The position numbers were made by a program, and so were the translations under genes. A stretch of 8,847 nt of DNA from a virus (Duplodnaviria > Heunggongvirae > Uroviricota > Caudoviricetes), in the IMG/VR virus record IMGVR_UViG_2724679236_000017. One strand, given 5' to 3'. Positions 2,983 to 8,847 of the stretch are shown here, piece by piece (the first letter of the stretch is position 1; every line of letters starts with the position of its first letter). The notes beneath the pieces were generated by a model. It had not been told where the DNA came from. It did no database searches and saw nothing but the letters and a program-made list of their open reading frames with translations.

Positions 2983-3471
2983 ATGGCTACCAACCCAAGA
3001 GAGCACGCCCGGCGAGTGCTGGACACGTTCTGGTGCGGGCGTGGTTTCCCTGTTGATCCAGCGAAAATTGCTCACGACATGGGATTAGATGTTTTTATTA
3101 CCGATCTTCCTGGGAAAGTTTCTGGCGCACTGATTAAACAAAAAGATCAAGATCCAGCGATCTTTCTAAACAGTGATGACAACAAAGTTCGTCAACGTTT
3201 TTCATGTGGGCATGAGTTGGGGCATTACATCGCCCGGCAAGCATCGCATAGCGATGAATATGAGTACGTTGATTTACGTGGCGAAACCGCAAGCGCCGGA
3301 ACGCATCCTGATGAAATTTTTGCGAACAAGTTCGCAGCAGAACTTCTGATGCCGGTTGATGAGGTCAGAAAACTGCACGCTGACGGCCAGCCAAGTTATA
3401 TAATGGCGCATTATTTTGGCGTATCTGACGATGCGATGACTTATCGTTTAAAGAACTTGAGGTTGGGGTAA
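2983..3471 (+). CDS. ImmA/IrrE-family (peptidase M78-like) zinc metallopeptidase
   Basis: 162-aa ORF with GGAGG Shine-Dalgarno 4 nt upstream. HEXXH zinc-binding motif (GHELGHY) is encoded at 3211-3225, followed by the ELLMP segment typical of the ImmA/IrrE fold. Protein size is typical of stand-alone ImmA-type peptidase domains. Confidence 0.85.
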   Translation: MATNPREHARRVLDTFWCGRGFPVDPAKIAHDMGLDVFITDLPGKVSGALIKQKDQDPAIFLNSDDNKVRQRFSCGHELGHYIARQASHSDEYEYVDLRGETASAGTHPDEIFANKFAAELLMPVDEVRKLHADGQPSYIMAHYFGVSDDAMTYRLKNLRLG

Positions 3472-3480
3472 CGCTTTAAA

Positions 3481-4086
3481 ATGCCATCGGATGACGATTT
3501 TAACAGCCGTTTCAAACAGGAAGTAGCACGCCGACTGAAGGATTCCCTCAACCTACACCGTCAGTTAGCAGAAGAGGTTGAACCGGAGGATGATGAAACT
3601 CCGGTTCAGTCTCCTGACGAAGCTTCACCTCAGCCAAAGATTTCGCACGCCCCCAAAAAAACGGCTGTCCGTATTCGCGGAATAGCCAGAAAAAGAGCTG
3701 CCGAAGCTCGCAAAATGGCTGTAGCTGCGTCTAGCAAAAGAACTCCAACTGCTACACCCTCTCAACAAGTCACCCGTACTGAGAGTAAAATATTGACCGA
3801 GTTCACATCTGTGAAACAGGTGAATTCACTTGATACCGAGCATGAGCGCAAACAACTCAACAACAAAGATTTTGAAGCAGAAATCGCTCTAAAAAAACGA
3901 TACGGGAAATGGTTCCTGATTATCCTTGCTTGCCAACTTCTGATAATGAATGGTGTATTTATTGCCGACGGCGCAGGTAAGCTGGAATTTGAGGATTTAA
4001 CACTACAGTTGTACATGGGCGGTACTTTGACAGAGGTATTCGGCCTCGTGCTGGTCGTGACAAAATACCTTTTTAAACGCAAGTAA
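3481..4086 (+). CDS. membrane-anchored protein with charged, low-complexity N-terminal region and two C-terminal TM helices
   Basis: 201-aa ORF starting 9 nt after the peptidase stop (operon arrangement). The N-terminal ~130 aa are rich in K/R/E/P/S/T and look disordered. The C-terminus carries two hydrophobic helices (WFLIILACQLLIMNGVFIA and TEVFGLVLVVTKYLF). No recognised family. Confidence 0.7.
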   Translation: MPSDDDFNSRFKQEVARRLKDSLNLHRQLAEEVEPEDDETPVQSPDEASPQPKISHAPKKTAVRIRGIARKRAAEARKMAVAASSKRTPTATPSQQVTRTESKILTEFTSVKQVNSLDTEHERKQLNNKDFEAEIALKKRYGKWFLIILACQLLIMNGVFIADGAGKLEFEDLTLQLYMGGTLTEVFGLVLVVTKYLFKRK

Positions 4087-4335
4087 CTCTCTCAGTCCAA
4101 CAGTCTTTCGAAGGCCTTGATCAAAGGGCCTTGATAAATTAGCAGTGCGTTGAAAACAGATAGTTATTCCCATCAGTTCCAACGTAATACACATCAAAAA
4201 AATCACCATTCTTTTGCTCTAACGTCAACACCTACTCTTAAAAAAATAATTCTCCAAGAATGAGAAAGTTATTGTGTGTATTAGATAAGATATGAGCTGA
4301 CACATCTATGGCGTGGAGCCAAATTTAATATGACA

Positions 4336-4359
4336 GTCCGCTCTGTGCCAGGAGCGGAC
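4336..4359. repeat. half copy (second hairpin only) of the conserved double-hairpin intergenic element
   Basis: GTCCGCTC-TGTGCCAG-GAGCGGAC is a perfect 8-bp stem with the same GTGCCA loop as the second hairpin of copies B, C and D. The upstream hairpin and linker are absent. Confidence 0.6.
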
Positions 4360-4660
4360 GTTGTAAAGTTTATTTGGAGAATAATGGTTAGAAGAACTAT
4401 GTAGATCATAGCCCTCTAAAGTCAGTAGTCTTACACCATATAAATGGTCATTTAGAGATAGTACACCACCTACAAAAAACGAGATAAAGCGTGCAAGCGG
4501 CATGAAGATACATAACTGCACTTGATGTTAGGATGAATACTGACACTCGCTTTGTAAAGATAAAGATGATCTTGAGGATGATTAGTTTATTAATTATCTC
4601 CAATGTTTGTTATTTTGTGATGATAAAGATTCTCTGGATTAATAGGATGGTAATTCAATT

Positions 4661-4688
4661 AAAAGAGACCTTATAGAAGGCCTCTTTT
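4661..4688 (-). terminator. intrinsic terminator for the 4713..5090 gene (possibly bidirectional)
   Basis: On the minus-strand RNA the stem GAGGCC/GGUCUC (one G/U pair) has loop UUCUAUAA and is followed by UUUUAAUUGAAUU, about 25 nt downstream of the stop at 4713. The plus strand forms the same stem followed by TTTT. Confidence 0.5.
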
Positions 4689-4712
4689 AAGTTATGAGAG
4701 CTGATTTTATAT

Positions 4713-5090
4713 TCAATAGAGTATTCTCATCGAAGAAATAACCTCATAAAATGTAAAGACAGCCAGCAAAAAAATACAGATAAAGATAAGGGAAATAGCA
4801 CACTTAACTAAGGACTGAATCCCCCGAGGTGTTCCCCATGGTTTAGACATTTGGGTTATAACCCAAATAAATAAGGCCATAAAACAGCAAACACCAGCCA
4901 ATCCGAGCAGAGATATTATGACAACTCCAAATAGATTTCCAACATCTAGTTTATCTGTTTTTGCAACCAGGGTTAACAAACCAGCAATAATAGTTGCTAT
5001 CGATATTCCCGCAATGGTTGTGAGATCAGCGATAACAGCCAGTTTTTCTTTAGTATTTCCTTGAGTAAAAACCTCTAAAATTGATTTCAT
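4713..5090 (-). CDS. small integral membrane protein (125 aa, about 3 TM helices)
   Basis: AGGTGG Shine-Dalgarno 9 nt upstream of the ATG on the minus strand. Three long hydrophobic segments. A perfect TATAAT (reverse complement of 5113-5118) lies upstream as a candidate -10. The gene has its own terminator. No recognised family. Confidence 0.65.
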   Translation of the reverse strand: MKSILEVFTQGNTKEKLAVIADLTTIAGISIATIIAGLLTLVAKTDKLDVGNLFGVVIISLLGLAGVCCFMALFIWVITQMSKPWGTPRGIQSLVKCAISLIFICIFLLAVFTFYEVISSMRILY

Positions 5091-5203
5091 GGAAAATAAC
5101 CACCTACTATCGATTATATTCAGGAACTTTTTATCATAACGATATCAGATAGATAAGGATATTGTAATATTTTGGATGATTTAAACTTACTTTTGTAACT
5201 CTA

Positions 5204-5271
5204 ATGTCCACTTTTCGCTCACAGCGGACCTTTAGCTCAGTTACCTCGTCCGCTTTGTGCCAGGAGCGGAC
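5204..5271. repeat. conserved double-hairpin intergenic element, copy B (68 bp)
   Basis: ATGTCCACTTTTCGCTCACAGCGGACCTTTAGCTCAGTTACCTCGTCCGCTTTGTGCCAGGAGCGGAC. About 84 percent identical to copy C by hand count. Two hairpins built on GTCCGCT/AGCGGAC arms. Lies between divergent gene starts. Confidence 0.7.
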
Positions 5272-5532
5272 GCTAACCTGATTGACGGGAAATCATATTA
5301 AGTCGGCATAAAAAATTAGAATATCTTTAGTGACTATTACTAATGTGTGTGTATAACTTATGCCTAATTTATCGCTCCGGCTGAGGGAATCTTGCCTCCG
5401 CTGTCACTTTTAGGTATGTTAACAACTATTTTTACAGTGGTTCCGAGTTATGCTATCTAACAGATTACTTGAACCGAGTCCGTTTATCAGTATGGCGTTT
5501 TATATGCTCAGAGTCCATCCAAGGAGTGACTT

Positions 5533-6009
5533 TTGAAATTTGAACAAATCTATAAAAATATTACTGGCCTTAGCTGTCCCATATTCGGGATTCAGTGGAA
5601 TGCTCCAATAATAGAAACTAACGAAGCGAAGAAGATCGTCATTTTTCTTGAGGACAAGCGCGTTCTTTTCAATCCTGTCGACATGGAGGGTGCTAGTCAT
5701 TGCACTTCGAGTGTTATCAACATTAGATCTGAATTGACTAAAGTCCTACAAGGTTTGCCGAGCGATTCACATTTAGCAAAACAATTAAGGAAAATGAGAA
5801 AAGCATGCCAAGAATTCTGTGACAGCGTTGGCTCCCCTCACTTTATCCAACTTGATCATCCTGTTCAAATATCCATACTTGAGCGAGCCCTTTTTAAACT
5901 GCGACAAAAGTGTGGTAACTCTCTGGCAGAAATAGCGGTTACCTATGGTCTTGATGTTGATGACGGATTGGCCAGTATTATCCCTTTTAATAATCCCAGT
6001 AACATATAG
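5533..6009 (+). CDS. hypothetical protein (158 aa), TTG start
   Basis: Consensus AAGGAG Shine-Dalgarno at 5521-5526, 6 nt before the TTG at 5533. No TM segments and no recognised motif. The gene sits alone between two repeat copies. Confidence 0.6.
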   Translation: MKFEQIYKNITGLSCPIFGIQWNAPIIETNEAKKIVIFLEDKRVLFNPVDMEGASHCTSSVINIRSELTKVLQGLPSDSHLAKQLRKMRKACQEFCDSVGSPHFIQLDHPVQISILERALFKLRQKCGNSLAEIAVTYGLDVDDGLASIIPFNNPSNI

Positions 6010-6102
6010 CAATGACTATGAATTTGCTTGCTGGATTAATTATCATGCAACCGACAGTTTTGGGTCGGAAGCGGTTAGCAAATTAGTCATTAGTGAGTCG
6101 TT

Positions 6103-6170
6103 ATGTCCGTTCATCGCTCACAGCGGACCTTCAGCTCAGGTAACTTGTCCGCTTCGTGCCAAAAGCGGAC
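6103..6170. repeat. conserved double-hairpin intergenic element, copy C (68 bp)
   Basis: ATGTCCGTTCATCGCTCACAGCGGACCTTCAGCTCAGGTAACTTGTCCGCTTCGTGCCAAAAGCGGAC. Lies between convergent gene ends (6009 plus, 6290 minus). Confidence 0.7.
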
Positions 6171-6232
6171 ATGTCAAAGCGCAGAGTGAATGGCTAAGTC
6201 TAGCTCATTAAAAATGTTCACTTCATGAAAAT

Positions 6233-6268
6233 GGCTGCAGCAAGAATCTATCTCACTGCGGCCTCTTT
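6233..6268. terminator. bidirectional intrinsic terminator between convergent genes
   Basis: GGCTGCAG-N15-CTGCGGCC stem (8 bp with one G/U pair on plus, one C/A mismatch on minus). Followed by TCTTTACAAT on the plus strand and AUUUUCAU on the minus strand, about 25 nt beyond the stop of the 6290..7045 gene. Confidence 0.45.
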
Positions 6269-6289
6269 ACAATAACGAAATTTTGCAAG

Positions 6290-7045
6290 CTATTCCTTGG
6301 CCTCTTTATTCTTCTCGCCATCGCCAATATAAATAAGATAGTCGTTTAAGGATATCCTTCCGGAGGGACCGGTCCATGTTATCAATCCGTTTTCACGAAG
6401 ATTAAATAATGCTTCCATGAACTCATTATCGTTAAAAGAATGATCTTCTGAGAACAGAATGTTCATTTTTCTCAATAGTTCTTCCACTTTAATCTTTTCA
6501 TATCGCCTTATCAGACTTAGTGCTCTACGACGCATTAAGACTGTAGGTACTGCTTGTGAACGAATGGTTTTTTGTATTCCACTATCAAGAACTTTCTTAA
6601 TCTTACTCTCTAATTCTTTGATTTTAGTTTCATTATCTCCATTGGACTTAAGCTTTTCATCAACGATACAAATAATCTCCTGACTAATGCGGTTCTTGAG
6701 TTTGTTTATTTTTTCTTCATTGTTGAGGATCTCATCAGAGCTTCCTGCATGGGGTTTTTTCCATATGTGCTGACGCATATCCGTTACCGTATCTCTCATC
6801 ATAGAGAATGTATCTGAATATAACTTGTCAAATATTTTTTCCAGCCGTTCGACACTTGCCTGGATGTCTTTTGCTGCTTTAGTTGTCTCTTTAGAAGCCT
6901 CATTCGACATTTTATAAAAAACAAAAGAAAGCCAAATAGCCCCAATGGCGAGTACTAATGAGGCTATTGTGGCAATAAAACCTATTATTGTTATTGCTGT
7001 ATCTAATGTACCTGCTGCATCTGTGACTACTGTTTCTGCTGCCAT
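6290..7045 (-). CDS. membrane-anchored protein with N-terminal TM segment and coiled-coil-like region (251 aa)
   Basis: GAGGA Shine-Dalgarno 3-4 nt upstream of the ATG. N-terminal hydrophobic stretch LDTAITIIGFIATIASLVLAIGAIWLSFVFY. A K/E-rich heptad-like middle (KINKLKNRISQEI..., KIKELESKIKKVL). C-terminal ~70 aa of unknown fold. No recognised family. Confidence 0.7.
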   Translation of the reverse strand: MAAETVVTDAAGTLDTAITIIGFIATIASLVLAIGAIWLSFVFYKMSNEASKETTKAAKDIQASVERLEKIFDKLYSDTFSMMRDTVTDMRQHIWKKPHAGSSDEILNNEEKINKLKNRISQEIICIVDEKLKSNGDNETKIKELESKIKKVLDSGIQKTIRSQAVPTVLMRRRALSLIRRYEKIKVEELLRKMNILFSEDHSFNDNEFMEALFNLRENGLITWTGPSGRISLNDYLIYIGDGEKNKEAKE

Positions 7046-7089
7046 ATATCCTCAATATTTAACCATACAGGGTAGCGTGTTTTAACCGC

Positions 7090-7125
7090 GGGGAAGTCGG
7101 GGTGGTGACACCCTGGCCTTACCCC
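7090..7125. other. GC-rich nested stem-loop in the putative 5' leader of the 6290..7045 gene
   Basis: GGGG-aagtcg-[GGGTG-gtga-CACCC]-tggcctta-CCCC: inner 5-bp stem with a 4-nt loop, flanked by a GGGG/CCCC outer stem. It stands out in AT-rich surroundings. A TATGAT -10 candidate (reverse complement of 7145-7150) would place it in the minus-strand leader. Confidence 0.3.
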
Positions 7126-7328
7126 AATTCCAGAGTATTTGTTTATCATACCATTGAAACTATTTAATTTTATCGAAAATTTTGTCAGAGCGTGACTGAA
7201 AAGTCTTCAGCACGTCAAGCAGATCGTCGCCGTTCAATTAGCACTGAACTTTTTCTTAGTGGGGGGCTGTGCAGTTGCGAAGTTATGCCCCAGTTCCTCA
7301 CTACATTCTAATTAAGCCGGCCAACTAA

Positions 7329-7390
7329 ATGTCCGCTCCTCGCTCACAGCGGACCTTCAGTTGTTCGTCCACTCCGTGCCAGGAGCGGAC
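7329..7390. repeat. conserved double-hairpin intergenic element, copy D (62 bp)
   Basis: ATGTCCGCTCCTCGCTCACAGCGGACCTTCAGTTGTTCGTCCACTCCGTGCCAGGAGCGGAC. The 11-bp termini ATGTCCGCTCC and GGAGCGGACAT are exact reverse complements. Lies between divergent gene starts. Confidence 0.7.
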
Positions 7391-7443
7391 ATTGATTATT
7401 CCTCTCTGTAAAAATCTTAATGCTAACTAGTGGGAACTATAAG

Positions 7444-8309
<866 letters not shown>

Positions 8310-8325
8310 CCAATATACGGCAGTA

Positions 8326-8847
8326 ATGAATATTTCGGGGATCGTGTTTGCTGCGGTCATGGTTACCATTAGTGTTCGCGTAGCAATGGAGATTGCCTAC
8401 TTATGCGTGGCCAGACAGAGTGATGTACTTTCATTGCAGAAAGACCAGCTGTTCGATTCCGGGATCTACATTCGTCAGGGAAAAACCGGCGTTAAGCAAA
8501 TCAAAGCCTGGTCGCCTCGTCTGCAGAAAGCGATAGCTCTGGCTCGTTCTCTGCCATTAAAAACGGGAATCAGTAGCCTGTTTGTGATTCATCAAACTAC
8601 CGGTGGCAAGTATACCCGTGATGGTTTTAACTCTCGTTGGCGTGATGTCAAAGCGGCAGCACAGGAAAAATATCCTCATCTGCAAATAGACTTCACATTT
8701 CATGATCTGAAAGCAAAAGGTATCTCTGATCTGGAAGGCAGCCTGGAAGAGAAGCAAGCAATTTCCGGGCATAAGAACCCACGACAGACAGCTGCCTATG
8801 ACCGAAAAGTTAAAGTAGTGCCCGTAGTTGGTGGCCAGAGAAAATGA
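8326..8847 (+). CDS. lambda-family tyrosine recombinase/integrase, C-terminal catalytic-domain fragment (5'-truncated, probable pseudogene or remnant)
   Basis: 173-aa ORF aligning by eye to the catalytic half of lambda Int: VRVAMEIA...ARQSDVL (Arg box), YIRQGKTGVK, FHDLKAKG (HxLR-like box) and GHKNPRQTAAYDRK (His and catalytic Tyr). The frame is closed upstream by TAG at 8293-8295, so the ~180-aa arm- and core-binding N-terminal domains are absent. No convincing Shine-Dalgarno. Confidence 0.75.
   Translation: MNISGIVFAAVMVTISVRVAMEIAYLCVARQSDVLSLQKDQLFDSGIYIRQGKTGVKQIKAWSPRLQKAIALARSLPLKTGISSLFVIHQTTGGKYTRDGFNSRWRDVKAAAQEKYPHLQIDFTFHDLKAKGISDLEGSLEEKQAISGHKNPRQTAAYDRKVKVVPVVGGQRK

Follow-up and report, generated by a model that had tools for sequence, protein, structure and literature searches.

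Organization of the accessory block

The window, the whole 8,847-nucleotide stretch of virus DNA analyzed here, contains an accessory block in which genes on alternating strands are separated by short palindromic units, as originally predicted. A repeat search of the window identified seven units of 24-28 nt and three composites of 60-68 nt. Two types of 24-bp site recur. H2 follows the pattern GTCCGCTYY-GTGCCA-RRAGCGGAC (GTCCGCTYYGTGCCARRAGCGGAC) and is present in four copies, at 4336-4359, 5248-5271, 6147-6170, and 7367-7390, all on the + strand; no match to this pattern was found in 200 dinucleotide shuffles. H1, with the pattern GTCCGCTNN-TCGCTC-ANAGCGGAC, is present in three copies in the same orientation as H2, and the H1 pattern TCGCTCACAGCGGACCTTYAG was matched at 5215, 6114, and 7340, with zero matches expected by chance. 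The copy positions and single orientation of the original prediction were all borne out by these searches, and it was also right that the element is not REP/BIME, ERIC, CRISPR, or a canonical attC.

Each 24-bp site is composed of two 9-bp inverted arms around an asymmetric 6-bp centre, with a half-site consensus of GTCCGCTYY that is often preceded on its 5' side by AAT or AAC. The arms of H1 and H2 are alike and the centres differ (GTGCCA in H2, TCGCTC in H1). Read on the opposite strand, the H1 centre is GAGCGA, so that H1 corresponds to an inverted H2 with two changes in the centre. A search with the arms only recovered the centres GTGCCA (n = 135) and TCGCTC (n = 123) together with point variants, and no hybrids; only two centre classes exist. 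The features of the array are as follows.

4293..4335, + strand, backbone-side flank at the left end of the array, homologous to sequence 3' of the tail-fibre-assembly gene G in P2-like phages
4336..4359, + strand, site A, an H2 alone (GTCCGCTCT GTGCCA GGAGCGGAC), the left boundary of the array
4360..5205, - strand, cassette 1 (cluster K04), a single ORF at 4713-5090 (-), 125 aa
5206..5271, + strand, junction B: H1 5206-5229, 18-nt linker 5230-5247, H2 5248-5271
5272..6104, + strand, cassette 2 (K03), ORF 5533-6009 (+), DUF6650
6105..6170, + strand, junction C: H1 6105-6128, 18-nt linker, H2 6147-6170
6171..7330, - strand, cassette 3 (K02), ORF 6290-7045 (-), 251 aa, function unassigned
7331..7390, + strand, junction D: H1 7331-7354, 12-nt linker, H2 7367-7390
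7391..8325, + strand, cassette 4, ORF 7476-8309 (+), GIY-YIG protein

By sequence comparison with P2 and P22H4, the 4293..4335 flank makes up the outer portion of the "left inverted repeat" of P2-like phages, and the Yersinia P2-like phage vB_YpM_115 matches 4293-4364 at 83%. In more than 600 E. coli genomes, homology to the window stops at 4359. Locus L003 keeps the left arm and centre of site A and continues with another right arm and another cassette. The protein of cassette 4 matches the anti-phage system PD-T4-3 in PADLOC (E = 4.7e-137) and LEM-3_GIY-YIG in Pfam. Cassette 4 has no right-hand H1 because a deletion, read from comparison with L151, fuses it to the prophage integrase gene, midway along that gene. 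In the lambdoid backbone, a direct repeat of approximately 80 bp flanks the accessory block, indicating a non-site event.

Array order and cassette reshuffling

The order of elements is fixed in approximately 170 related loci: backbone, H2, then cassette and H1.linker.H2 repeated, a last cassette, H1, and backbone. A PWM scan found this H2...H1 order, in a single orientation, in approximately 50 loci. Gene G is present in the locus of 85 P2-like G/FI slots; 50 of these contain H2 H1, six contain H2 H1 H2 H1, and none is empty. A cassette extends from the right arm of an H2 through the left arm of the H1 that follows it. In the 66-bp "double hairpin," a spacer module lies between the right end of one cassette and the left end of its neighbor. 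The spacer module, which runs from the right arm of H1 across 12-18 nt to the left arm of H2, is gene-free and approximately 40 bp long. An early suggestion that the repeat is a MITE-like palindromic unit is not supported, because the 66-bp unit consists of abutting cassette ends and a spacer, with no insertion, and occurs in only one to four places per E. coli genome. The sites are present in 976 of 5426 complete E. coli genomes.

The 126 cassette instances fall into 77 clusters, and defence genes are carried by many of these cassette types. Singly or recombined, the cassettes of the window recur in an island and in P2-like phages, where they occupy the G/FI (Z/fun) slot. K04, the ORF of which gave no family match, is carried in the Z slot by P2-like prophages L129, L131, and L148 (100% amino acid identity); it stands alone in L259, and its combinations are K04 alone, K04-K03, and, in the window, K04-K03-K02. 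K03 lies beside K04 in P2-like prophages, beside a different cassette in E. coli island L004, and also occurs as K03-K24. K02 also occurs alone: Peduovirus P22H4 and phage 9W have it as the sole cassette of their G/FI slot, with 96% DNA identity over 6181-7354. K08 is common to an E. coli P2-like prophage and a Pectobacterium chromosome. Cassettes are reshuffled across backbones and genera within a constant array order. Cargo includes PD-T4-3, retron and DRT reverse transcriptases, PARIS, AbiL, Shedu, DarT, and TIR proteins, and its direction is random with respect to the sites (68 same, 65 opposite). Strong support for the proposed role of the repeats, as recombination sites at which single-gene modules are exchanged, comes from the same cassettes in other combinations and backbones, always site-bounded, from homology breakpoints at the 6-bp centres, and from a tyrosine recombinase gene found elsewhere between both site types.

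Homology breakpoints lie inside the 6-bp centres

P2 backbones are constant up to "...ctgaca GTCCGCTCT GTGCCA" and again from "TCGCTC AAAGCAGA ctgtcag...", and the cassette-side arms change with the cassette. In 1097 H2 pairs that share only the left flank, positions 8-9 are linked to that flank, with mismatch of 0.23 and 0.12 versus 0.69 and 0.49 in unrelated pairs, whereas mismatch at positions 16-17 is at the unrelated level. The 820 H1 pairs that share only the right flank have the mirror-image pattern. The centres are invariant, so the crossover can be placed no finer than positions 10-15, and a 2-bp exchange at the shared central GC, in the style of a serine recombinase or a GC-duplicating transposase, fits the junctions equally well.

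A small tyrosine recombinase is encoded between H1 and H2

The gene found between the two site types encodes a 200-aa tyrosine recombinase, here named sInt, that is similar in size to FimB/FimE, has the full set of catalytic residues, and matches PF00589 at 1e-18. The gene appears to be undescribed so far. sInt is 94-100% identical among Pantoea, E. coli, Hafnia, Scandinavium, and phage contigs. All 11 distinct downstream regions have an H2 that begins 18-19 nt 3' of the sInt stop codon, and an H1-type site lies 63-72 nt 5' of the ATG in 11 of 12 distinct upstream regions, two of which, from marine contigs, have the variant centre TTGCGC. The flanking regions include those of Proteus, Providencia, and marine contigs; sInt is bracketed by H1 and H2 at fixed distances in the contexts examined, from E. 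coli to marine gammaproteobacteria, and it reads in the + direction of the site in 14 of 14 contexts. It is present in 844 of 5426 complete E. coli genomes, and in two E. coli genomes sInt and sites are 2-4 kb apart.

From this arrangement we infer that sInt is the likeliest enzyme for site exchange, although it could be a mere passenger in a preferred position. The sInt-side arms (ATAAGGGAC, CTTTCGGGA, AGCAGCCCT) deviate from the GTCCGCT consensus, and sInt is found in only one of the 85 P2-like slots and is absent from the window and from most arrays, so that action in trans must be assumed. These points count against the explanation developed below, as does the difference at H1 positions 8-9 between copies of one cassette (CC in junction D of the window, TT in P22H4).

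Folding of the units and alternative explanations

The explanation that we favor, and hold as a whole to be probable, is an integron-like cassette exchange at two heterospecific sites in which each 24-bp "hairpin" would be a double-stranded recombinase core site and sInt the most likely enzyme. Other explanations were weighed against the same data.

Single strands of the units are predicted to fold as originally described, into two hairpins or, for copy D, one long palindrome, with energies of -9.5 to -23 kcal/mol (z -2.2 to -7.3). Such stable folding, by units all in one orientation, would suit recombination of folded single-stranded DNA, either an H1.linker.H2 folded in the manner of attC, with an outer stem, unpaired centre, inner stem, and loop, and recombined on one strand by a tyrosine recombinase, or conserved loops nicked by an HUH enzyme (IS200/IS605 TnpA-like, RAYT-like, or Rep-like). 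The "loops" are the most conserved parts of the units, a typical feature where an enzyme nicks within a hairpin loop, and the composite arm/centre/arm/loop/arm/centre/arm parallels the R''-L''-loop-L'-R' of attC. Pairing, however, is no better than in shuffled sets: 81.3% versus 80.6% for the two-hairpin fold and 80.0% versus 80.0% for the long palindrome, with no excess of G:T over A:C mismatches on either strand. Covariation is thus absent: in 124 to 146 distinct copies, the arms pair as often as expected from shuffling. The closing pair of the GTGCCA loop, earlier thought to vary yet stay paired, is Watson-Crick in only 45% and 43% of 146 distinct H2 sites, the same as shuffled. The idea of selection on structure, or of a structured RNA, is not supported: neither fold covaries, an Rfam search matched no family, and a terminator scan gave one marginal match versus 2.7 expected, with no T-run after the stems. 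Sequence rather than structure is conserved, the opposite of attC; array ends carry a lone H2 or a lone H1, where the long fold is impossible; and the loops TCGCTC and GTGCCA are unrelated on one strand, so that a single nickase would need to act on opposite strands. No HUH gene was found near the arrays in an IS200 seed search, the P2 A nick site is unrelated to the sites, and the gene between the sites encodes a tyrosine recombinase rather than an HUH enzyme. We regard folded single-stranded substrates as unlikely.

It is also improbable that no dedicated enzyme is involved and that the 24-bp units are portable homologies or breakage-prone palindromes used by general, Red/RecET-type, or illegitimate recombination. 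PeSL of T4-type phages provide a precedent (PMC2839356), and the majority of arrays lack a recombinase gene. The array in the window came with 45 nt of P2-like backbone at its left end, which counts against our favored explanation because exchange in this transfer, at least, did not run cleanly from site to site, and the direct repeat around the lambdoid accessory block is likewise the mark of a non-site event. Crossovers nevertheless fall only in the 6-bp centre even though the 7-bp arm cores offer equal homology, and linkage flips between positions 8-9 and 16-17 exactly across the centre in both sets of pairs. Two strict, distinct centres without hybrids would not be expected from homology alone, the units have neither a promoter nor a terminator signature, and a recombinase gene lies between the sites at fixed spacing in all contexts examined.

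We consider it very unlikely that the cassettes are non-autonomous, transposon-like elements with terminal inverted repeats (NNAGCGGACATT ... AATGTCCGCTNN) that enter a palindromic target and duplicate GC, or that a serine recombinase acts at GC, with H2 and H1 being attL/attR-like hybrids of an attB-like GT.GC.TC and an attP-like TC.GC.CA. Both centres do share the central GC, an 11+2+11 split regenerates H2 and H1 exactly from two hypothetical parents, and every cassette has 12-bp inverted termini. However, no parental centre (GTGCTC or TCGCCA) or empty target was found among approximately 280 sites and the 85 P2-like slots, and no recurrent transposase or serine recombinase was found in or near the arrays. 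Gene-free spacer modules between cassettes would demand tandem target sites, and the associated enzyme is a tyrosine recombinase, a family with overlaps of 6-8 bp.

Finally, it is scarcely credible that the units are regulatory or insulating elements (bidirectional terminators, RNA-stabilizing hairpins, or operators) that travel with accessory genes and have no role in recombination: they are always intergenic and near gene ends, and their palindromes form in transcripts of either strand, but the terminator, Rfam, and covariation results are all negative, the annotated V-operon terminator of P2 lies elsewhere, within the cassette, and such a role leaves both the centre breakpoints and the H2-first/H1-last order unaccounted for.

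Relation to known systems

The borders of the P2 Z region are not new. They were annotated about twenty years ago as "left/right inverted repeats" in P2-like phage Z-region records (GenBank AJ512676, AJ512683, AJ512685). The left inverted repeat annotated there stops with the final base of H2, and the right one opens with the first base of H1. Those records describe backbone repeats of approximately 100 bp around single inserts, without the 24-bp core sites, the two centre classes, the back-to-back multi-cassette junctions, or the recombinase. In its title, the paper behind them reportedly already draws the inference of site-specific recombination and of a link with other enterobacteria. Recent hotspot studies do not mention such borders and call the exchange mechanism unknown (PMC13586616, PMC9122126).

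Like integrons, the arrays consist of promoter-poor, mostly one- or two-gene cassettes with imperfect-palindrome boundaries and a tyrosine recombinase encoded at the array, and, like CALINs, many lack the recombinase. Integron cargo is reported to be rich in defence genes, as here (bioRxiv 10.1101/2024.07.02.601686). Unlike integrons, there are two different sites per cassette rather than one, without RYYYAAC/GTTRRRY boxes and conserved in sequence rather than in structure; cargo orientation is random; the recombinase gene lies inside the array, between H1 and H2; and the 200-aa sInt scores only 16-17 bits against integron-integrase models with cut-offs of 265-435.

The dif modules of Acinetobacter plasmids are accessory modules between inverted, 6-bp-centred pdif sites, of two alternating types, with the replicon backbone forming one module and extensive inter-replicon shuffling (PMC13141974, PMC6449649, PMC7399989). 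The arrays here resemble them in their discrete modules, inverted 6-bp-centred sites, two alternating types, the counting of the replicon backbone as one module, and shuffling. However, pdif sites are 28-bp XerC/XerD sites served by the chromosome-dimer resolvases of the host, whereas a dedicated small recombinase is implicated here; the arms, compared by eye, do not resemble dif; and the modules of the second type here are usually 40-bp spacers that contain no gene. Identical arms with incompatible spacers, if the two centres are indeed heterospecific, are also the principle of engineered cassette exchange with heterospecific lox/FRT sites, which is a laboratory design. We know of no natural counterpart.

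FimB and FimE, like sInt, are approximately 200 aa, consist essentially of the catalytic domain only, and act on short inverted repeats. Similarity to sInt is weak (25 bits against a cut-off of 222), and the Fim enzymes flip a single promoter segment that lies between identical repeats; inversion products of that type, which would have hybrid centres, were not found in the arms-only search. PeSL are likewise short conserved stem-loops between non-essential genes in hyperplastic regions, at boundaries of insertion, deletion, and replacement, and they mediate modular shuffling and mini-circle formation (PMC2839356). They comprise a sigma-70 promoter and a terminator and act by homologous recombination, whereas the units here have neither signal and cross over in the 6-bp centre.

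Proposed mechanism

In the integron-like exchange that we favor, strand exchange would occur within the 6-bp centres, each serving as the overlap region. Like would recombine with like (H2 with H2, H1 with H1), and H1 and H2 would be incompatible. Two crossovers would then swap a cassette between any two replicons bearing the site pair, and a single crossover between direct like sites would excise or integrate a circle of cassette plus spacer module, by which arrays could grow. Some arrays have the sInt gene where a spacer would otherwise lie (H1, gene, H2), and the enzyme would act in trans on arrays without their own copy, such as that of the window. A heterospecific site pair would leave a cassette swappable but never lost, which would account for the P2 slot never being found empty, either previously (PMC13586616) or among the 85 slots counted here. 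The sites bound swappable cassettes, mostly of anti-phage genes, in enterobacterial prophages, islands, and plasmids.

Two classes of 24-bp site in a decayed lambdoid prophage

The repeats lie where the original prediction placed them in the accessory block, all on the + strand, where none would be expected by chance, and the ORFs between them do alternate in direction. They comprise two classes of 24-bp site, each made of a 9-bp arm, a 6-bp centre and a second 9-bp arm.

Sites in the window
H2 (GTCCGCTYY-GTGCCA-RRAGCGGAC): starts at 4336, 5248, 6147 and 7367, + strand
H1 (GTCCGCTNN-TCGCTC-ANAGCGGAC): starts at 5206, 6105 and 7331, + strand

The DNA from an H2 right arm to the next H1 left arm is referred to as a cassette, and the H1 right arm, linker and H2 left arm as a spacer module. 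As single strands, the H1.linker.H2 units could fold as two hairpins or as one long palindrome. The lone H2 at 4336-4359 (site A) is present as predicted, but it is not a half copy, being instead the regular left end of the array. The sequence up to position 4359 is common to more than 600 E. coli genomes, and at the counterpart of site A in comparison locus L003 the left arm and centre are identical whereas the right arm and cassette are different.

The window is a decayed lambdoid prophage of E. coli, with genes for antiterminator Q, DUF1364 and DUF1367 proteins, an ImmA/IrrE peptidase and a truncated integrase. Its counterpart in a related strain adjoins tRNA-Leu/Cys/Gly, pgsA and uvrC. Alignment of window positions 8290-8847 with L151 (6200-6300) and L003 (15607-16623) shows that the C-terminal ~173 amino acids of the prophage integrase are left, a deletion having fused the sequence that immediately follows the PD-T4-3 cassette to a point midway through int. 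Agreement between the window and L151 runs to '...ggttaccattag', with divergence beyond. The right-hand H1 of the array and the rest of the left part of the prophage are therefore missing from the window. In related strains, the accessory block consists of ~250 nt of unrelated sequence, 45 nt of P2-like flank and then the array, and is bracketed by a direct repeat of ~80 bp that corresponds to the 3' end of a 201-aa gene (3481-4086).

Copies of the ~80-bp direct repeat
Window: 4016-4086
L151: 6522-6595
L003: 12320-12394

This arrangement suggests that the accessory block reached the lambdoid backbone in some other way than by site-to-site exchange. Outside the cassette array, the ImmA/IrrE-type peptidase (2983-3471, + strand) matches the PADLOC models capP (2.4e-25) and RmrA, and neither of its neighbors, a 77-aa ORF (2351-2584, + strand) and the 201-aa ORF (3481-4086, + strand), has a family match; this part of the prophage backbone may form a module for regulation or defence. 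At 2116-2156, an 18-nt inverted repeat that is nearly perfect, with arms 5 nt apart (CGAATAATAAAAATTGCA / TGCACAATTTATTATTCG), is found at and just upstream of the start of a 225-aa ORF (1466-2143, - strand) and looks like an operator.

Array order and the P2 G/FI slot

A position-weight scan of all related loci revealed a single order and orientation: backbone, H2, any number of repeats of cassette and H1.linker.H2, a last cassette, H1 and backbone. For the P2 slot, 120 contigs with the P2 right flank were collected, and gene G was inside the locus in 85. In these 85 P2-like loci, H2 is located 53 or 65 nt past G, H1 abuts the conserved sequence preceding FI, and the insert between them is 0.8-5.9 kb. 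The site order is H2 H1 in 50 of the 85 and H2 H1 H2 H1 in six, the others having one site decayed below threshold or an irregular order; an empty slot was looked for and found in none of them. In phage P2 itself, H2 (15335-15358) and a decayed H1 (17432-17455) flank fun(Z), and there is no further copy of either site in P2 outside the Z slot.

A decayed H2 beyond the seemingly terminal H1 is seen in many arrays, for example in L003 (10875-10940), L005 (8137-8205), L076 and L197, where it lies 16-18 nt past H1 with its centre kept and its arms lost. This indicates that arrays erode from their ends and that simple pattern searches undercount the sites. In a P2-like contig (L144, 1363-2646 and 2703-4949), an array consisting of H1.H2 and a weak H1 is directly downstream of a gene A homolog, which is the other P2 hotspot (old/tin position), and the sites are therefore not restricted to the G/FI slot.

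GenBank records AJ512676, AJ512683 and AJ512685, titled 'Bacteriophage P2-EC.. proviral Z-region', annotate a 'left inverted repeat' to the last base of H2 and a 'right inverted repeat' from the first base of H1. The left repeat (3-115) of AJ512685 and AJ512676 terminates in ...GTCCGCTCTGTGCCAGAAGTGGAA (H2), and their right repeat opens with GTCTGTTTTTCGCTCAAAGC... (H1). The ends of the repeats match the limits of the foreign DNA inserted between G and FI, a slot in which window cassettes 1-3 are also found, and the annotation shows that these borders were already known. We take the three records to derive from the work of Nilsson, Karlsson and Haggard-Ljungquist (Mol Biol Evol 2004), whose title is said to infer site-specific recombination already. 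The borders are unmentioned in two recent hotspot studies (PMC13586616, PMC9122126) and seem to have dropped out of current work. A literature search by sequence string and keyword found no paper describing the sites or the recombinase, and the 24-bp two-class core sites, the array order across mobile elements and the embedded small recombinase appear not to be described in the searchable literature.

Cassettes and their cargo

In P2-like prophages, the G/FI slot can hold cassettes 1 and 2 of the window side by side, with 99-100% protein identity. Elsewhere, cassette 1 is the sole insert of a P2-like G/FI slot, and cassette 2 is present in an E. coli island beside a different neighbor cassette. 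Cassette 3 is the only insert of Peduovirus P22H4 and phage 9W (96% DNA identity). Across the related loci, 126 cassette instances fell into 77 clusters, often with changed neighbors, and one cassette is common to an E. coli P2-like prophage and a Pectobacterium chromosome. These comparisons point to cassettes that move independently of one another.

One gene is present in 40 of the 77 cassette types and two genes in 23, and ORF orientation relative to the sites is random (68 same, 65 opposite). The cargo includes PD-T4-3, retron and DRT reverse transcriptases, PARIS, AbiL, Shedu, DarT and TIR proteins, as well as LysR/MFS and acetyltransferase genes. Cassette 4 of the window encodes a PD-T4-3 match (E=4.7e-137). 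The other three cassette proteins of the window are uncharacterised: a 125-aa protein without a family (4713-5090, - strand), a DUF6650 protein (5533-6009, + strand) and a 251-aa protein with only sub-threshold matches (6290-7045, - strand). Membership of the cassette system that also carries PD-T4-3, retrons and PARIS makes their genes candidates for anti-phage functions.

The crossover maps to the 6-bp centre

The P2-like backbone is constant through the centre, on the left as '...ctaatctgaca GTCCGCTCT GTGCCA' and on the right as 'TCGCTC AAAGCAGA ctgtcagatt...', and the cassette-side arm varies with the cassette. Among 1097 pairs of H2 sites sharing the left flank only, positions 8-9 are linked to the flank (mismatch 0.23/0.12, versus 0.69/0.49 in unrelated pairs), whereas positions 16-17 are at the unrelated level (0.59/0.62 versus 0.54/0.58). 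The 820 pairs of H1 sites sharing the right flank only gave the mirror-image pattern. The switch in linkage between positions 8-9 and 16-17 indicates that the crossover is confined to positions 10-15, despite equal homology in the arms. Site A of the window, compared with L003, follows this pattern too. The recombination-site role that the original prediction had listed among several possibilities is thus supported, with cassettes reshuffled across backbones at breakpoints within the 6-bp centres.

A search with the arms only recovered the centres GTGCCA (135 sites) and TCGCTC (123 sites) together with point variants; hybrid centres, expected of parental att-type sites or inversion products, were looked for in the same search and none were found. 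On the opposite strand the H1 centre is GAGCGA, two of whose six positions differ from GTGCCA. Each cassette is therefore bounded by an inverted pair of sites whose arms are similar and whose centres are not. The 9+6+9 layout and the linkage switch across positions 10-15 fit a generic tyrosine-recombinase core site, in which inverted arms that bind the enzyme enclose an asymmetric overlap of 6-8 bp where strands are exchanged. An exchange of only 2 bp at the GC shared by both centres, in place of a 6-bp overlap, would be compatible with the same sequences.

A candidate recombinase encoded between H1 and H2

No recombinase recurs inside the cassettes or beside most arrays. A Pantoea plasmid with at least 13 sites in one orientation encodes a 200-aa 'site-specific integrase', here called sInt, exactly between H1 and H2, at the linker position. 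Proteins 94-100% identical to it are found in an E. coli island, Hafnia, Scandinavium, a P2-like prophage and another phage contig, and close relatives number in the thousands across the Gammaproteobacteria. The gene is present in 844 of 5426 complete E. coli genomes (~16%). It sits, among other contexts, in lambdoid prophages (one in E. coli 042), in islands that have a P4-type integrase, in Proteus prophages and islands packed with defence-like genes, and in marine ICE-like elements.

H2 starts 18-19 nt past the sInt stop codon in all 11 distinct downstream regions, and an H1-type site precedes the start codon by 63-72 nt in 11 of 12 distinct upstream regions, two marine contigs with the variant centre TTGCGC being counted among the 11. 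The arms are constant on the sInt side and variable on the cassette side. In every context examined for bracketing, sInt is in the + direction of the sites and in a backbone-type position (H1, gene, H2), the reverse of the cargo placement. The protein belongs to PF00589 (Phage_integrase; 68 bits against a Pfam cut-off of 27.1), and the R-K-H-R-H-Y catalytic residues, assigned by eye, are visible in its translation (LRGCD, QQKTG, HSMRR, LLGH, VRYLG). It scores far below the Xer, Fim-type and integron-integrase models, and phmmer (E up to 0.001) found no solved structure matching it.

We detected an 84%-identical sInt copy (gene 7001-7603) in ICE-like elements of marine metagenome and Cycloclasticus contigs (L293-L298), between arsenic-resistance and copper-resistance blocks, with an H2-type site after it and a TTGCGC centre before it. 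Outside the Enterobacterales, the system may shuffle modules for metal resistance. Several P2-like Yersinia phages (OR545058.1, 16520-16607; MT374855.1, 20641-20728; and others) contain ~88 nt matching H1 and the sInt upstream leader, without the gene, which looks like what is left of a recombinase module that the phage slot formerly held.

Among other enzymes, approximate seed sequences of Hin-type invertase and IS200 TnpA gave no matches in 171 loci, and large prophage integrases were found in three loci only. P2 Int and A can be dismissed, since neither the attP core nor the gene A nick site bears any relation to the sites, which in P2 occur only at the Z slot.

Genomic distribution

The 86-bp unit is present in 976 of 5426 complete E. 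coli genomes, at one to four places each and always intergenic, in 431 plasmid records (mainly Klebsiella, Enterobacter and Pantoea), in 32 IMG/VR contigs and in thirteen enterobacterial genomes of other genera. The viral contigs were scanned with a gapped pattern of 20+ bases, unlike the genome collection (596 Gb), for which a 15-mer query was used; ~105 of the 120 loci from the latter were chance matches in GC-rich genomes and 13 enterobacterial loci were usable. All copies are confined to prophages, islands and plasmids.

Structure, regulation and known systems

Integron attC sites have the core boxes RYYYAAC ... GTTRRRY, whereas the arms here are GTCCGCT/AGCGGAC, and their flanks (AAT/AAC and ATT/GTT) fall short of the attC consensus. 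In attC the fold is conserved and the sequence variable, with compensatory changes and extrahelical bases; here the sequence is conserved and pairing is at the shuffled level. Integron cassette genes are co-oriented with the array, in contrast to the 68:65 split here, and an IntI-type integrase beside the array is lacking, sInt scoring 16-17 bits against cut-offs of 265 and 435. Xer/dif-type sites, whose centre is 6-8 bp, have the 6-bp centre in common with the sites here, but their 11-bp XerC and XerD arms (GGTGCGCATAA / TTATGTTAAAT type), compared by eye, match at only ~2/11 positions. There is a resemblance between the H2 centre GTGCCA(A) and the R64 shufflon core; we dropped this reading because the arms mismatch and no Rci-like gene was seen.

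The original prediction had proposed that structure is under selection, and this is rejected, because arm pairing is what the conservation of each arm predicts: 81.3% versus 80.6% shuffled for the two-hairpin fold, and 80.0% versus 80.0% for the long palindrome, with no excess of G:T over A:C mismatches. A structured-RNA role likewise fails, with pairing at the shuffled level and no Rfam covariance-model match at E up to 1 over the whole window. The units do not look like selected RNA or single-strand structure and, on sequence grounds, are best described as four copies of one protein-binding half-site. Nor is the unit MITE-like: it is the junction of two cassette ends, with a lone H2 or H1 at the array ends, its copy number is low and no direct duplication flanks it.

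PeSL-type cassettes have a strong sigma-70 promoter followed by a terminator stem-loop, and here no promoter-like site overlaps the units and a single marginal terminator-like match occurs, at junction D. The sequence TGGCAC on the H2 minus strand resembles a sigma-54 -24 box, but no -12 element follows. The original prediction did not recognise REP/BIME in the sequence, and rightly so: REP and similar dispersed repeats have hundreds of chromosomal copies, whereas these units occupy few places per genome, within mobile elements, and are preceded in the sequences listed by AAT/AAC rather than the REP-type GTAG.

Proposed mechanism and significance

We propose that sInt, or else another enzyme, would bind the arms and exchange strands in the 6-bp centre, and that like sites would recombine and unlike sites would not. 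Two crossovers would swap a cassette between any two replicons carrying the site pair; one crossover between direct like sites would excise or insert a circle of cassette plus spacer module, and arrays would grow in this way. Such a mechanism would explain why arrays keep one order, breakpoints are sharp, centres fall into two classes, slots are never empty and cassettes come from a shared pool. With two heterospecific inverted core sites per cassette, a cassette would be exchanged rather than lost. The mechanism does not account for the origin of gene-free spacer modules, the divergent sInt-side arms, the variable H1 positions 8-9 or the 45 nt of P2-like flank at the left end of the array in the window.

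Our most far-reaching reading, to which we give slightly less than even weight, is that the sites and the 200-aa recombinase form a new integron-like but mechanistically distinct cassette system of Gammaproteobacteria. Each cassette would have two heterospecific inverted sites, exchange would be a natural form of RMCE, and the recombinase gene would itself be an array module. From this system would come the common stock of defence and other accessory genes that the P2 Z/fun hotspot shares with lambdoid prophages, genomic islands, ICE-like elements and large plasmids.

In a 2026 survey covering thousands of P2/P4 elements, no transposons were detected, homology between different element types was deemed insufficient and the mechanism was left open; P2 hotspots were never empty, and the mechanism of exchange with other elements was stated as unknown (PMC13586616). 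An earlier study speculated on cos ends (PMC9122126). At issue is what lets phage hotspots exchange defence genes so fast and so cleanly, and how a given defence system arrives in unrelated mobile elements. A portable 24-bp site pair, the exact array order with the crossover position, and a candidate enzyme make it testable at the bench. As a practical tool, a scan for H2...H1 pairs marks out the cargo with precision and should yield a set enriched in new defence genes. Provided that the two sites are heterospecific, nature would have here a cassette system that only swaps, which would explain why the P2 hotspot is never empty, and genome engineering would gain a compact recombinase of 200 aa that uses short sites.
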